Of a stretch of 64,000 bases of DNA, positions 16,829 to 58,150 are shown one piece after another. Source of the stretch: Candidatus Levybacteria bacterium RIFCSPHIGHO2_01_FULL_40_16 (lineage in GTDB: Bacteria; Patescibacteriota; Microgenomatia; Levybacterales; UBA12049); the NCBI GenBank assembly GCA_001783805.1, contig MFNS01000001.1:192649-256648 (forward strand), read 5' to 3'. The position numbers and the translations under genes were made by a program. A model generated the notes under the pieces. That model was not told the DNA's origin, made no database searches, and saw nothing but the letters and a program-made list of their open reading frames with translations. The first letter of the stretch is position 1; each line of letters begins with the position of its first letter.

Positions 16829-18061
16829 TCATTTTTCCCCGGCGTATTTTCGAAGAATGGGAACTTTAAGCGCGACTGCTCCGGCGATTATTACTGTTGC
16901 CACTCCCCCTACAACAACAGATAAGGGAGCCCCGATTGCTCCGGCCAGAAGTCCCGCTTCAAATTCTCCAAGCTGAGGCCCTCCCATAAAAAAGATCATG
17001 TTAATTGATGTCATTCTCCCCCTAATGTAATCCGGCGTCATGAGTTGACGAATAGTGTTCCTGATGACGGTGCTAATACTGTCCCCTGCGCCAACCAAGA
17101 AAAGGGCTAAAAATGACAGCCAAACATATCTGGATAATCCGAACATTATAGTAGCCAAAGCATAAATGAAAACGCCCAAAAGAAGAAGTTTTCCCTGATT
17201 TTTAATTTTTCCAATAAATGCCATGACGTATCCGGTCAAAACAGCGCCAATTGATTGTGCAGCGTATAAAATACCAAAACCAATTGGTCCGACATGGAGA
17301 ATTGTTTCTGCAAAAATGGGCAAAAGAGAATTTGCCGATGAGAAGAAAGTGCTAAAAAAGTCCAGAACCATTGTCGACCAGATAATAGTTTTTGATTTAA
17401 TGAAAATCAGACCTTCGAGAATTGCACCAAAAGAAACCTTGGACGGTTTTCCTTCAATTTCTCCCGATGTTTTCATCATAATTAATGCCGTAATTACTGC
17501 CAGAAAAGAAATAGCGTTAATCAGATATATACTTCCGACCCCATATTGCTTGATAACAAAACCGCTTAACGCAGGGCCAATAACCATTGACATTTGAAAC
17601 ATAATTACATTTAAACTCATTGCATTAGCCAAGTGGTCTTTATGGACAAGGCTGGGAATAATGGCTTGTCTTGGAGGCGCGTCAAAAGCAACCGCTACGG
17701 CAGATAGACTAGTAACAATGTAAATTATCAGTGGATTCACGGTGTTATTAAGGGTGGCAAAAGCAAGAATGAAAGAGAGTATTGTTAAGGTAATTTGGGT
17801 AATAAAAAGGATTTTGCGTCGATTATGGGCATCGGCAACCGCTCCTGCAAGAAGTGCAAAAATTGCGATTGGCAGAAATCTGGCAAGTCCAATTAGTCCA
17901 AGCGAAATAGCGGAGTGAGTAATTATGTAAATATGCCAATTGATCGCGGCAAACTGCATTTGAGAGCCAATAGTGGAAATCAACAGCGCAATCCATAACA
18001 GCCGGAAATCCCGATATTTTAAGGCCGCAAACCTACCATGCTTAACGCTAGGCATACTCAT
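16829..18061 (-). CDS. MFS transporter
   Basis: About 12 hydrophobic segments; GAVADAHNRRKI motif A. Confidence 0.9.
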   Translation of the reverse strand: MSMPSVKHGRFAALKYRDFRLLWIALLISTIGSQMQFAAINWHIYIITHSAISLGLIGLARFLPIAIFALLAGAVADAHNRRKILFITQITLTILSFILAFATLNNTVNPLIIYIVTSLSAVAVAFDAPPRQAIIPSLVHKDHLANAMSLNVIMFQMSMVIGPALSGFVIKQYGVGSIYLINAISFLAVITALIMMKTSGEIEGKPSKVSFGAILEGLIFIKSKTIIWSTMVLDFFSTFFSSANSLLPIFAETILHVGPIGFGILYAAQSIGAVLTGYVMAFIGKIKNQGKLLLLGVFIYALATIMFGLSRYVWLSFLALFLVGAGDSISTVIRNTIRQLMTPDYIRGRMTSINMIFFMGGPQLGEFEAGLLAGAIGAPLSVVVGGVATVIIAGAVALKVPILRKYAGEK

Positions 18062-18453
18062 GATTGCTTAGTATATCAGAAAAATCTTTTAGTAAAATTA
18101 GTTATTGACAACCAATGTTATTTTTTGCATAGTATATTTATGGCAAAGAAAAAAGTCACTAGAAGATCTTCAAAGAGTCTCTTTCAAACAAACCCAAATT
18201 TAAAGTGGTTGCTTCCCTTGTTTATTCTAGCCTACTGGCTAACTACAGTTATAAAATAATATCTCAAGAGTACTTCCGTTCCCAATATTGATTAAATTAT
18301 TCCGCAGAATTAGAGTTTTCTCTCGAATAGGATTTTGTATGCCCGTTGTGTACCGCCATGGGGATTCGAACCCCCTCCCAATTTTAGCGCTCGGCTTTTC
18401 AGAACTATTCGTTTACGCTTCGTGCTGCCCGGAACGTTAATTTTGGCCTTTTG

Positions 18454-18527
18454 TACCTCCGACCGGATTCGAACCGGTGATTCTCTGGCTGAAAACCAGA
18501 TGTCCTAGGCCGCTAGACGACGGAGGC
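18454..18527 (-). tRNA. tRNA-Glu(TTC)
   Basis: GCCTCCG...TCTGG-TTTTCAG-CCAGA...GGTTCGAATCC...CGGAGGTA cloverleaf. Confidence 0.93.
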
Positions 18528-18770
18528 TTGATGTTTAATTAAATTTTCAATTGCAACCCTGCTTTTAAGCGATTTTAAATAAAATTCTCTTTTTCGAGCT
18601 TCTGATAACGTTTCATATTCTTCTTTGTAAATAAGTTTAAACGGTCCCCGATTTTTTGTATACTTTGAACGTCCTTTATTGTGATCTGTAAGCCGGCGAT
18701 TAATGTCAGTCGTACTGCCAATGTAATGTCTACCGTCAATATCACTTCTTAATATATAAGTCGTAAACAT
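18513..18770 (-). CDS. small GIY-YIG nuclease (UPF0213-like)
   Basis: MFTTYILRS...HYIGST...RRLTDHN...ARKREFYLKS; likely ATG at 18770; stop lies inside tRNA-Glu. Confidence 0.9.
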   Translation of the reverse strand: MFTTYILRSDIDGRHYIGSTTDINRRLTDHNKGRSKYTKNRGPFKLIYKEEYETLSEARKREFYLKSLKSRVAIENLIKHQASVV

Positions 18771-18969
18771 TTTGGTCCTAGGTTCCGATTTAATCGCGAA
18801 TGCTCGATGGATAAATCCATCGGCACCGCTAGCCCCGATGATCGGTGTCATCGGGATCCCGCACGAATGAAATTCGTCGGGAACGATGGCGGCAAGCATT
18901 ATTGATTATACCAACTTTCCTAAAAAAACCCAAGACTCACTTAAGAGCCTCGGGAGAATAAACTTTAAT

Positions 18970-19632
18970 TTATTCTAACTTCCTGCGAAGTCCCTCAACT
19001 ATTTCTTTAGCGCTATTTTGTCCGCCCAGTCCGAAAGCAATACCTCCTGCAATAGCCAACATTGCTACAAAACCTGTAAATAATATCCTGATCAAGTCTG
19101 TAGCAACACCCAACTGATTAAGCACTGCCAAGATTACGAATACATTTACCGCCCAGCGGGTAACAGATGCAATCCTATTGGCCGTATTTGAAGATATTCC
19201 TTTGACTGATGCCAAAATCAGGTTGTGAGCCAGACTTCCTAACACAAAGCCGACAACTGCAATGATGGCTGCAACAAAAACATTTGGGAGATAGAGTAAG
19301 AATTCATTAAGAATCGTTACAACTCTGGGAAGTCCCCAAATGTCTGCTGTTGGAAGTAAGAAAATAATAATTATAAACCATCTGACAATTTCGGCAAAGA
19401 TGTTCGACCAGGAAAACTCTTCATTTGCTTCGGGCACACCGTACTTCCTCAACAAAGCCTCCACCCTGAGAGCTTTGAAAATTCCTAAAACTATTTGCTT
19501 GAGAATGGAAGCAATGATGATACCGATAAGAAGAACTACCGTTCCGGCGATTAAGTTTGGCACAAAACTTCCTACCACTGCAACACCGTTATTCAGAGAA
19601 GCAAGGAGTGTTTGACCAATATCTTGTGTCAT
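18970..19632 (-). CDS. TM-helix repeat membrane protein (small-conductance mechanosensitive channel-like)
   Basis: FVPNLIAG/YLPNVFVA repeats and AIAGGIAFGLGG; strong SD AGGAGGTGA. Confidence 0.8.
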   Translation of the reverse strand: MTQDIGQTLLASLNNGVAVVGSFVPNLIAGTVVLLIGIIIASILKQIVLGIFKALRVEALLRKYGVPEANEEFSWSNIFAEIVRWFIIIIFLLPTADIWGLPRVVTILNEFLLYLPNVFVAAIIAVVGFVLGSLAHNLILASVKGISSNTANRIASVTRWAVNVFVILAVLNQLGVATDLIRILFTGFVAMLAIAGGIAFGLGGQNSAKEIVEGLRRKLE

Positions 19633-21463: not shown

Positions 21464-21754
21464 TTATTTATATTCCCTGTGCGTTCCAGTATGGGTTACT
21501 ATTGCAAATAGGATGATTCTCATTTTTCCTTCCGGATCAAAATCCCAAATAATTCGTAAGTCTCCGCTGATCCAACTACTCCATCGTTCCCCAAAGATTC
21601 TCGTATTGACTTTATGTGATTTAAGCGAAGGGTAAAAAGGTTTTCGCCTTAAGAAATTTAAGGCTTTTTTTGTCCTTTTCTCTTTTTCTTGATTTCCTTT
21701 TACTATTGCGTTATAAGTATGTTTAAAGGAGTCTAGGAAACGGAGGATATACAT
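21464..21754 (-). CDS. RelE/ParE-superfamily toxin
   Basis: Basic 96 aa; PFYPSLKSHKV...WSSWISGDLRII; downstream of small acidic partner gene. Confidence 0.7.
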   Translation of the reverse strand: MYILRFLDSFKHTYNAIVKGNQEKEKRTKKALNFLRRKPFYPSLKSHKVNTRIFGERWSSWISGDLRIIWDFDPEGKMRIILFAIVTHTGTHREYK

Positions 21755-21762
21755 ACAATCGT

Positions 21763-22020
21763 TTAAATAGTTCTAAGATAGTTATCAAGTTCTTCTTCAG
21801 TTTTGACGTCAGTATATTCTCCCTCTTTTATATTTTGAAGGCCTTTTGCAATCAATTTTTCCGTCGCCTCATCTACAAGTGGAATATTTACCTCTTTTAA
21901 ATATTTCTCAGCGAGAGATATCTTGATAATCTCAGCTTCAGACAATAAACGGTACTTGTTTCGTAGAAAAGCTAAAACACCTTCTAGTTCCGGTGTTTTG
22001 GTTAATCTAATTTGCGACAT
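21763..22020 (-). CDS. putative antitoxin
   Basis: Upstream of toxin; acidic C-terminus GLQNIKEG...EEELDNYL. Confidence 0.65.
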   Translation of the reverse strand: MSQIRLTKTPELEGVLAFLRNKYRLLSEAEIIKISLAEKYLKEVNIPLVDEATEKLIAKGLQNIKEGEYTDVKTEEELDNYLRTI

Positions 22021-45510: not shown

Positions 45511-45587
45511 TGGGGTGGGCAACGGGACTCGAACCCGCAACCGTCAGGTCCACAACCTGATGCTCTAGCCATTGAGCTACGCCCACC
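45511..45587 (-). tRNA. tRNA-His(GTG)
   Basis: G-1 GTGGGCG...TCAGG-TTGTGGA-CCTGA...CCA. Confidence 0.95.
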
Positions 45588-45605
45588 ATTCTGCAGAGCA
45601 GAATT

Positions 45606-45869
45606 CTATTCTAGCTTATCATAGTTTTCGAAAATGATTTTTCTCAATCTATGTCCAAAACCAGACTTTAAAAATTGTTTTCTTTTATCTGCGCACAATC
45701 TGCAATAAAAGTTTTCGAAATAAACTAAACGCCATGGCCGATTTGTCTTCGTATATCTAGAAAGTCCATCATTATGTTCCTTCAATCTAGATTCAATATC
45801 TTTTATTGTTAATCCTATATATGTCTTGCTTTTGTTGTGTAAACTTTTCAAAAAGTAAACTTTATACAT
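45606..45869 (-). CDS. small GIY-YIG nuclease between tRNA-Arg and tRNA-His
   Basis: VYFLKS...TYIGLT...RLKEHN...YTKTNRPW; KRKQ where paralogs have KRE. Confidence 0.88.
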   Translation of the reverse strand: MYKVYFLKSLHNKSKTYIGLTIKDIESRLKEHNDGLSRYTKTNRPWRLVYFENFYCRLCADKRKQFLKSGFGHRLRKIIFENYDKLE

Positions 45870-45915
45870 TAGGTCAAGTTAAAATCAAGACATAAAGAAA
45901 TCTGCTTTGCAGATG

Positions 45916-45988
45916 TGCCCCCGGAGGGAATCGAACCCCCAACCTTGTCGTTAGAACCGACCTGCTCTATCCGTTGAGCTACGAGGGC
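45916..45988 (-). tRNA. tRNA-Arg(TCT)
   Basis: GCCCTCG...GTCG-GTTCTAA-CGAC...GGTTCGATTCC...CGGGGGCA. Confidence 0.88.
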
Positions 45989-47114: not shown

Positions 47115-47197
47115 GCTGCGGTGGTGGAATGGTATACACGGAGGCCTTAAGAGCCTCTATCCGTAAGGGTGTGTGGGTTCGACTCCCTCCCGCAGCA
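47115..47197 (+). tRNA. tRNA-Leu(TAA)
   Basis: GAGGC-CTTAAGA-GCCTC anticodon arm; long variable arm. Confidence 0.92.
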
Positions 47198-47226
47198 CTT
47201 CTGCAGAGCAGAATCTAAAGGCGTAA

Positions 47227-47502
47227 ATGTATAAAGTTTATTTATTGCATAGCCTAAAAGACACAGGGATGTCTTACGTTGGATTAACAATTAAGGAAAT
47301 AGACAAGAGAGTTGAAGAACATAATAAAGGACTATCACAATATACAAAAACATTTAAGCCGTGGAGATTAGTTTATTACGAACTTTTCTATTGCAGAACA
47401 TGTGCCGAAAAAAGAGAACAATTCTTGAAAAGTGGAGTAGGATATCAATTAAGAAAACATCTGCTTACATTTAAGAATTCTTCTTTGAAGAACGGGGGTT
47501 AG
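47227..47502 (+). CDS. small GIY-YIG nuclease; stop overlaps outer tRNA-Pro
   Basis: VYLLHS...SYVGLT...RVEEHN...AEKREQFLKSG. Confidence 0.9.
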   Translation: MYKVYLLHSLKDTGMSYVGLTIKEIDKRVEEHNKGLSQYTKTFKPWRLVYYELFYCRTCAEKREQFLKSGVGYQLRKHLLTFKNSSLKNGG

Positions 47503-47516
47503 CTCAGTTGGCTAGA

Positions 47517-47559
47517 CCTGCCCGCAATTGCCTGGAGCCGATAGCGACTGGCAGGCGGG
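47517..47559 (+). mobile_element. empty 43-bp mini-element in D-arm of outer tRNA-Pro
   Basis: CCTGCCCG...GGCAGGCGGG. Confidence 0.85.
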
Positions 47560-47572
47560 GCGCGCGGTTTGG

Positions 47573-47681
47573 CCCGCCTGACTTGAAATGACGGGGTGTA
47601 GTTCATCGGTAGAACGCTCGGTTTGGGACCGAGAAGCAACAGGTCCAATTCCTGTCACCCCGACAAGTCATTTCGGGCAGG
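47573..47681 (-). mobile_element. 109-bp tRNA-Pro-carrying mini-element in anticodon loop
   Basis: CCCGCCTGACTTG...[tRNA]...CAAGTCATTTCGGGCAGG. Confidence 0.85.
47592..47663 (+). tRNA. inner tRNA-Pro(TGG)
   Basis: CGGGGTG...CTCGG-TTTGGGA-CCGAG...ACAGG-TCCAATT-CCTGT...CACCCCGA. Confidence 0.88.
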
Positions 47682-47777
47682 GACCGTGAGGTCGGAGGTT
47701 CAAATCCTCTACCCCCGACCAAGTTGAGTTTTTATGTGCTAAAATTGAAGTAGTTTACTTCGGATAATTAAAGCGGG

Positions 47778-57729: not shown

Positions 57730-57987
57730 CTAGGCATGATCATTCCAGTCTTTTAATCTTTTCCGCAAATAACTTTTGCCCAAACGAGTTTTGAGATATT
57801 TTTCTCTACGATAAGCATCAATTTCGCTTAGGCTGGCTTCGTAGTATATTATATCAAATGGAGCATATGGGCTGGTAGACTTAACCATTTTCTCATTATG
57901 CTCTCTAAATCTTCCTCTTAAATCATTAGTACATCCTGTATACAGAAATTTTCTGGACGTACTTTTTAAAACATAAACGTAAAACAT
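57730..57987 (-). CDS. small GIY-YIG nuclease directly 3' of outer tRNA-Val
   Basis: MFYVYVLKS...LYTGCTNDLRGRFREHN...AYRREKYLK. Confidence 0.9.
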   Translation of the reverse strand: MFYVYVLKSTSRKFLYTGCTNDLRGRFREHNEKMVKSTSPYAPFDIIYYEASLSEIDAYRREKYLKTRLGKSYLRKRLKDWNDHA

Positions 57988-58041: not shown

Positions 58042-58150
58042 CCGGCCTGACTGGACTTTGTGGACCCGAGAGGATTCGAACCTCTGACCTTCTCAGTGTA
58101 AATGAGACGCTCTACCAACTGAGCCACGGGTCCATTCAAAGTCGGGCAGG
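58042..58150 (-). mobile_element. 109-bp tRNA-Val-carrying mini-element in D-arm
   Basis: CCTGCCCGACTTTGAAT-[tRNA]-CAAAGTCCAGTCAGGCCGG. Confidence 0.85.
58061..58133 (-). tRNA. inner tRNA-Val(TAC)
   Basis: GGACCCG...TCTCA-TTTACAC-TGAGA...GGTTCGAATCC...CGGGTCCA. Confidence 0.93.

Follow-up and report, generated by a model that had tools for sequence, protein, structure and literature searches.

A small GIY-YIG nuclease gene, an intact tRNA-Glu(TTC) gene and several short hairpins were found within the remains of another tRNA-Glu gene, in the genome of a Patescibacteria (CPR) bacterium (0.9-Mb, 98.9% complete). Judged by sequence, these remains, hereafter the shell, represent one old allele, and the nuclease cassette sits inside a broken former tRNA-Glu(TTC) gene. 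The locus lies in the window C1:192649-256648, by which we mean the whole stretch of 64,000 nucleotides that was analysed, and it can be read as two modules: the nuclease cassette, and what is left (the right arm) of a tRNA-in-tRNA insert that carries no nuclease. Its anatomy and history are well supported. We further infer that mobility is driven by the nuclease.

The original prediction, made from the letters of the window, described on the minus strand a fragmented tRNA-Glu shell enclosing a GIY-YIG gene and a complete tRNA-Glu. All its parts were recovered in the predicted order, every piece at its place (Table 1). The locus is flanked by an MFS gene on one side and a mechanosensitive-channel-like membrane gene on the other, with tRNA-Lys(TTT) farther out. 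The -10 hexamer of the resident gene is predicted to drive the whole cassette. As single-stranded DNA, the two hairpins of the first pair (18857-18882 and 18833-18856) fold with -8.9 and -8.0 kcal/mol; in the second block, the hairpin at 18801-18825 reaches -8.2 kcal/mol and the one at 18783-18800 is weak (-2.2). An RNA fold z of -3.06 for the whole region was set aside, as it reflects the hairpins, and the output of ARAGORN at a lowered threshold was mostly noise. At its normal setting, ARAGORN finds the inner tRNA as the sole TTC Glu gene of the genome, and its sequence is identical to a stand-alone gene of G006. Its nt 1-15 provide the last four codons and the stop TAG of the nuclease ORF, the TAG being at nt 13-15, so that the stop codon lies inside the inner tRNA as had been proposed. 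What had been taken for one degenerate hairpin further downstream proved to be two items, an orphan inverted-repeat arm and a truncated copy of a dispersed repeat, the latter also present in another shell, L081, where it occupies the T loop. The shell here lacks nt 26-35 and 40-49. The anticodon arm had been called unrecognisable; four of its bases may survive, too few for proof.

Table 1. Features of the tRNA-Glu locus, listed in the direction of transcription, with positions in the window.
Feature	Position	Strand	Evidence
-10 promoter hexamer of resident tRNA-Glu gene	18905-18910	-	Sequence; same position before plain tRNA-Glu in G002 and G005
Shell nt 1-11 (acceptor 5' strand, start of D stem), former resident tRNA-Glu(TTC)	18883-18893	-	11/11 vs G002 intact gene, 9/11 vs inner tRNA
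Tandem hairpin pair TCCCGA...TCGGG(A/G), 26 + 24 nt, at tRNA nt 11/12; left junction of cassette	18833-18882	-	
tRNA-Glu nt 12-19 relic (D stem/loop)	18826-18832	-	6/7 vs G002, 7/7 vs inner tRNA
Second hairpin block, 25 + 18 nt, at tRNA nt 19/20	18783-18825	-	Fold; related block in relatives
tRNA-Glu nt 20-25 relic	18775-18782	-	
GIY-YIG nuclease ORF, 85 aa, single domain	18513-18770	-	PF01541, E 5e-17
Intact inner tRNA-Glu(TTC)	18453-18527	-	ARAGORN; Rfam 57.7 bits
Orphan right inverted-repeat arm, 17 nt	18431-18447	-	10-base exact match to G003 arm, same 5-nt offset after inner tRNA
Possible shell nt 36-39 (3' side of anticodon loop)	18424-18427	-	4/4 vs G002; too short for certainty
5'-truncated copy of dispersed ~70-nt repeat, replacing shell nt 40-49	18375-18423	-	3 other genome copies, E<0.05
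Shell nt 50-74 (T arm, acceptor 3' strand, discriminator)	18350-18374	-	25/25 vs G002 intact gene, 18/25 vs inner tRNA

Elsewhere in the window, two small adjacent ORFs of 96 and 85 aa (21464-22020, minus strand) are toxin-antitoxin-like by size and arrangement, with no Pfam match. The block formed by tRNA-Lys, the membrane gene and tRNA-Glu faces efp in G003 (L186) and G006 (L005), and is inverted relative to efp here.

The five pieces of the shell match the intact tRNA-Glu(TTC) gene of the congener G002 at 54/55 bases, compared to 46/55 for the inner tRNA, which identifies the shell as the old resident gene. An alignment with the single tRNA-Glu of relatives had been suggested as a check, and it is this G002 gene, plain and adjoining tRNA-Lys at the same site, that gives the match. 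Against the tRNAs of its own genome, the shell shows 9 mismatches with either Glu gene and 18 with the nearest non-Glu gene. The outer acceptor strands pair 7/7, and the predicted joining of the 5' pieces into a Glu-type acceptor and D-arm with pairing acceptor halves therefore held. Since both halves match the G002 gene, they belong to one gene and one type, Glu; halves from two tRNA types, which would have spoken against the prediction, are not what we found. With the membrane gene as anchor, the orthologous site was located in 12 other genomes: 10 carry a plain tRNA-Glu, G003 a nested tRNA without nuclease, and G029 a nuclease cassette. Cassette presence at this site is patchy.

G003, of the same genus, holds a complete copy of the same shell allele (nt 50-74 are identical in both), with a different tRNA-Glu(TTC) placed between inverted arms at the anticodon, and no nuclease. 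From the right arm of this insert, ten bases are found again here, with the same offset of 5 nt from the end of the inner tRNA, and the left arm is absent. Same shell allele, same arm and same offset link the locus to this nuclease-free nested system, a link which had been anticipated. The suggestion that the locus is an older version of that system was not supported: the missing left arm and the missing nt 26-35 would be better explained by a cassette overwriting a nested locus. In the simplest history, the nuclease cassette would have replaced the stretch from nt 12 to the end of the passenger tRNA in a nested ancestor. The tree of the genus is a weak one (77-81% nucleotide identity, supports of 38-90, with uvrA disagreeing with the neighbouring gene), and for this reason the succession of events at the locus is read from one relative and a 10-base match.

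A strict pattern for tRNA-Glu nested at the anticodon retrieved G003 only among 245 genomes, and missed a nest at nt 10/11 in G005. This nest belongs to a Glu(CTC) series, with an intact gene in G004, a nested one in G005 (L151) and one having lost the 3' shell in G006 (L155); in the last two, the nesting is at nt 10/11, in a shell nearly equal to the intact G004 allele. In G000, tRNA-Glu(CTC) is followed at C1:16950-17007 by a short hairpin and a second copy of the acceptor 3' end, which may be a small remnant. tRNA genes are regarded as among the most vertically stable genes. In six genomes of the genus, Glu(TTC) nevertheless occurs as four alleles, 11-20 of 70 nt apart, with only 0-2 differences in the neighbouring Lys(TTT) of the four genomes where it is in range. 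This fast turnover of tRNA-Glu alleles, beside a Lys gene that barely changed, contrasts with the presumed stability of tRNA genes.

The left junction of the cassette, namely a tRNA-Glu split at nt 11/12 by a double hairpin, was then searched in 245 genomes of the order. It yielded 17 matches in 16 genomes, and none with a reversed control; positive genomes were one per genus, over 16 genera, and the six congeners were all negative. All 17 matches lead into GIY-YIG, 16 straight into the gene and one into an internally deleted remnant, and 16 then reach an intact tRNA-Glu, the remaining one stopping at a contig edge. The first hairpin pair is therefore part of the cassette rather than debris. 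This restricts the proposal that the dead shell acts as a sink for hairpins, which is not supported for the first pair; the second block at nt 19/20 recurs as well, a related block being found at the same place in six other loci (L087, L092, L094, L095, L098 and L100). Only the 3' repeat looks like later debris. Hairpins of the first pair are also scattered through relatives, both between genes and within other repeats, and are thus a REP-like mobile palindrome as well as a cassette junction. In L087 and L092, hairpins have been inserted into one another, Russian-doll fashion, and also into the T loop of the 3' shell.

Scans seeded with the protein returned at least 39 and at least 70 loci. 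Together with five more, 114 loci were examined, and 99 remained after removal of 15 exact duplicates. tRNA-Glu lies directly downstream of GIY-YIG in 46 of these 99 distinct loci, among the matches listed. The proposed search for the layout across genomes thus came out positive in both forms (17 junction matches, 46 Glu-linked loci among the matches listed), and shows that across Patescibacteria the cassette has a fixed layout, a fixed insertion point and Glu as its fixed partner. Of the 46 Glu loci, 36 have a 5' fragment split by hairpins; among the matches listed, it equals the acceptor strand of the inner tRNA in 21 cases and differs from it in 15. Leaving out five loci cut by contig ends, a pairing 3' half was found downstream in 9 of 14 loci with differing alleles (this locus included), and in 0 of 17 with equal alleles, again among the matches listed. 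The Fisher p of 1e-4 overstates this difference, since the loci are related, L087 and L092 being near-identical. Three loci with the whole junction (L084, L093, L112) have a stub of the outer allele and the hairpins repeated after the inner tRNA, the hairpins being identical on both sides in L093 and L112. Fragments, 3' halves and repeated stubs together show that the target of the cassette is a resident tRNA-Glu, which it enters around the D arm. Same-allele remnants would collapse by recombination and different-allele remnants would persist. Two records titled "uncultured Gammaproteobacteria" (L048, L051) do not speak for transfer, as they are the same DNA as the order members G051 and G053.

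Several other arrangements were noted on the way. In L185 (G123:C50:7400-8643), a cassette stands behind a promoter region much like this one, without the membrane gene, and the Glu(CTC) there has a mismatched acceptor stem, as if chimeric. Five loci from Desulfobacterota and Bacteroidota (L054, L066, L068, L076, L078) have a mirror layout, with an intact tRNA (Asp, Ser), GIY-YIG, and a 3' duplicate in which a palindrome replaces the anticodon. The window itself holds, at 47115-47720 (plus strand), tRNA-Leu(TAA), a GIY-YIG ORF from 47227, and a tRNA-Pro shell with a D-arm hairpin, in which an intact tRNA-Pro(TGG) (47592-47664) is nested between inverted arms at the anticodon. At 58172-57750 (minus strand), an intact tRNA-Val(TAC) (58060-58133) sits in the D arm of a Val shell, directly followed by a GIY-YIG ORF starting at 57987. 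The GIY-YIG ORF at 45511-45988 (minus strand), between tRNA-Arg(TCT) and tRNA-His, is in the tree the sister of the Leu/Pro-linked protein. In G000, the layout of 5' fragment with hairpin, GIY-YIG and intact tRNA is seen for tRNA-Ile(GAT) (C1:407.3-407.8 kb) and tRNA-Asn (C7:98.8-99.3 kb), the tRNA-Asn locus having also a full second copy with a hairpin in its D loop.

The 85-aa protein is a member of the GIY-YIG superfamily by domain and fold, and the catalytic Tyr, Tyr, Arg, His and Glu are all there. Its structure model (pLDDT 88) has 1zg2 as best fold match (E 2.8e-5), and by sequence and fold the nearest structures are UPF0213 and Slx1 domains. Residues Y5, Y16, R26, H30 and E62 are invariant in 36/36 full ORFs among the matches listed; the Y/Y/R/H align with Slx1, and E62 is what we take to be the catalytic Glu of the family. 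In the 8 computable of 13 close pairs, dN/dS ranged from 0.03 to 0.23, the rest being saturated, and the nuclease clade is conserved. Broken copies were met as well, by frameshift in L079, L124 and L129, and by deletion in L073 and L166. Pfam and the structure model gave no separate DNA-binding domain, and a protein atlas returned generic GIY-YIG clusters only for this protein. Its match to the 215-position TIGR01453 concerns only residues 5-77, with a score far below cut-off.

In a tree of 95 proteins, which contained no SsnA sequence, 40 Glu-linked rows fell in one clade of 41 (98/84, from few columns and with an unsettled bootstrap); two Glu rows were outside, and smaller groups went with Gln, Asp or Ser. 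The stop codon is a TAG at tRNA nt 13 in 41 of the 46 Glu loci, among the matches listed, and spacer length varies in steps of three. This fixed stop could have to do with regulation, or a stop may simply be required there. At the present locus, the nt 20-25 relic places an AGGA 5 nt before the ORF ATG, which may serve as ribosome-binding site. A Shine-Dalgarno role of the D-arm relic across loci is not claimed, as GGA is present in the ribosome-binding window of only 16/39 loci.

Our preferred reading, held with moderate confidence, is that the cassette spreads as a selfish, self-rescuing element, whose nuclease is predicted to cut intact tRNA-Glu genes near nt 11/12. In an ancestor, as still in G003, the anticodon of this gene would have been interrupted by a tRNA-in-hairpin insert lacking a nuclease. 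The cassette, likely foreign DNA, would then have arrived and joined at nt 11/12 behind the tRNA promoter, its other end being resolved at the nested copy, with loss of shell nt 26-35, of the left arm and of the earlier passenger tRNA. With hairpins at nt 11/12, the cut site would be lost and an occupied allele thereby protected, the passenger tRNA would make the insertion survivable, and the useless shell would have gained a further repeat while decaying. From a single cassette transcript, tRNA 5' maturation would remove the nuclease stop codon and thereby limit nuclease expression. Enzyme activity, target, protection and stop-codon throttling are all predictions here, and "autonomous", as the cassette had been called, would be a plausible term for it. 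Some observations go against a selfish element. The passenger is often the host's own allele, as in the 21/36 loci, among the matches listed, where fragment and inner tRNA are equal, an outcome that simple local duplication would also give. Strong purifying selection equally fits a host function. The protein is 85 aa long without a separate DNA-binding domain, unlike classical homing endonucleases, and the genome encodes two Y1 (HUH) transposase-like proteins which could move hairpins.

Two of these points lead to explanations that we regard as unlikely, though worth weighing. The nuclease could be a domesticated host gene placed before tRNA-Glu for co-transcription, for instance in SsnA-like single-stranded DNA restriction or repair, the shells being passive scars of local duplication and hairpin insertion. 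Besides purifying selection and the loci of equal alleles, this agrees with the eleven GIY-YIG genes of the genome, most of them adjoining tRNA or tmRNA genes, and with the host role described for SsnA in Neisseria (PMC11893778). The gene is however absent from 6/6 congeners and most of the order, broken copies recur, and neither a fixed nt 11/12 junction nor foreign inner alleles in 15/36 loci, among the matches listed, are expected of a resident gene. Alternatively, a Y1/HUH transposase could move both hairpins and tRNA-in-hairpin inserts, the GIY-YIG gene riding along; this, too, we find improbable. The genome has two PF01797 matches, hairpins are dispersed far from GIY-YIG genes in relatives, and nested tRNAs exist in G003 and G005 without any nuclease. 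Yet the Glu 11/12 junction never occurs without a GIY-YIG gene or remnant (17/17), nuclease clades track tRNA type (Glu, Gln, Asp, Ser), and conserved catalytic residues are left unexplained by hitch-hiking. Both PF01797 matches are on other contigs, as a REP/RAYT or IS200/IS605 arrangement would not have them, though they could act in trans.

Three further explanations have little left to sustain them. An ordinary att duplication by an integrase had been named as what could overturn the prediction; at tRNA-Glu, it would have been left by an island decayed since. tRNA 3' fragments are the usual att scar, and the genome has two tyrosine recombinases. This origin is largely refuted, and very improbable: the two copies of an att repeat are of one allele, but here 7/25 positions of the 3' fragment are unlike the inner tRNA, and the fragment pairs with the 5' one; the recombinases are far off, either about 100 kb away on C1 or on C7; att duplication yields neither a 5' fragment nor a complete second tRNA; and the site shows neither an integrase nor a same-allele direct repeat. 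The inserts could also be introns, with splicing turning the shell into a functional tRNA-Glu. In favour, the gene that holds the G003 insert is complete except for the interrupted anticodon. In Patescibacteria tRNAs, group I introns have reportedly been seen at anticodon position 35/36. Here, splicing cannot rebuild the shell, as nt 26-35 and 40-49 are missing; there is no Rfam intron match, the upstream fragments of relatives stop within the D arm, and G003 has a separate Glu(CTC) gene. A tRNA intron at this locus is refuted by the missing anticodon arm, and we give the intron reading almost no credit. Lastly, the locus could be an assembly chimera joined via a repeated tRNA, which we find barely credible. 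Contigs from another run, X5, which is not marked as the source, cover 17900-18488, 18494-18878 and 18854-19400 with zero differences, at depths of 19, 17 and 15, and none of them spans the inner tRNA across its middle. Both sides are thus assembled identically at matching depth, both shell halves are one allele, gene order is as in G005, and there are eight further full shells. In contigs from 4 of the 20 DNA runs listed, no joint was seen at the cassette ends; joints from 18374 to 18484-18486 in run contigs were dismissed, as they have other letters between and are likely other organisms' tRNA-Glu genes.

Coming back to the self-rescuing cassette, the locus shows a tRNA allele swap mid-course, with a candidate enzyme named, and it is useful in that nuclease cassette and nested system are joined at one site. 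It is also a warning that a tRNA fragment in a CPR genome need not be a prophage att scar. Should the protein prove to cut its cognate tRNA gene, a function could be assigned to some of the large uncharacterised UPF0213/Slx1-like group, a sister case to Ssn would be at hand, and a substrate could be predicted for each tRNA-linked clade. More tentatively, and as a conjecture that may well prove too broad, there could be a new class of mobile elements without transposase or integrase. In it, tRNA-specific clades of 85-aa GIY-YIG proteins would cut cognate tRNA genes and integrate there together with a spare tRNA and hairpin junctions. They would also move tRNA-in-hairpin cassettes lacking a nuclease in trans, be throttled by tRNA 5' processing, which takes away their stop codon, and thereby drive wholesale replacement of tRNA alleles in CPR. 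A literature search, with most subscription papers outside its reach, returned no description of this layout, and a nuclease-driven gene-replacing element of this form is probably undescribed in print.

Among known systems, the Ssn family comes close in its parts. SsnA is a small GIY-YIG nuclease associated with NTS/SRM hairpins, for which an IS-like origin was proposed (PMC11893778), and the likeness consists in a small GIY-YIG gene of a single domain, with short DNA hairpins next to it which are scattered through genomes as well. By contrast, the SRM motif was found in the flanks of 0/46 Glu loci, among the matches listed, and nowhere in the own genome, with a positive control for the regex, and the nearest structures here are UPF0213 and Slx1. 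The main text of the Ssn paper contains no mention of tRNA, CPR or Patescibacteria, and its supplements might list CPR proteins (PMC11893778). A divergent GIY-YIG gene between two GTCA-tagged hairpins in G000 (C1:395.4-395.9 kb) looked Ssn-like by eye and had no match to the SRM regex. The UPF0213/Slx1-like domains (PDB 1zg2, 1ywl, 6seh) are the best sequence and fold matches and share the catalytic residues, but those entries record no mobile or tRNA-linked role, and Slx1 is larger and partner-dependent. With REP/RAYT and IS200/IS605 systems, the cassette shares short dispersed palindromes tied to one nuclease gene; there the enzymes are HUH (Y1), whereas here it is a GIY-YIG and the hairpins are at a fixed tRNA position.

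In logic, the cassette is nearer to two other systems. SegB of phage T4 is a free-standing GIY-YIG homing endonuclease in a tRNA cluster, with a 27-bp site containing a T stem-loop motif (PMC2330249). In both cases a GIY-YIG gene would spread with tRNA genes by cutting a conserved tRNA motif, as known for SegB and predicted here; SegB lies between phage tRNA genes (PMC2330249), whereas the present gene, located at the D arm inside a chromosomal tRNA gene, has hairpin junctions and an overlap with its passenger tRNA. As for a homing endonuclease, occupied and empty alleles were found at one conserved site, but the single domain of 85 aa leaves no DNA-binding region for a long site. The mORFs of fungal mitochondria replace the 3' end of protein genes, in Allomyces atp6 and in Glomus atp6, atp9, cox2 and nad3 (PMC3630166). 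There as here, an endonuclease gene enters an essential gene, brings a foreign replacement and leaves a native piece, with the differences that a whole tRNA is supplied here, in bacteria, with hairpin junctions and an 85-aa nuclease. The foreign replacement and the native piece left behind are both seen, in the shell and inner alleles and in the 9/14 versus 0/17 count among the matches listed. On these analogies, the cassette would resemble mORFs and SegB in logic and Ssn in parts, while departing from Ssn and from classical homing endonucleases in one defining trait of each.
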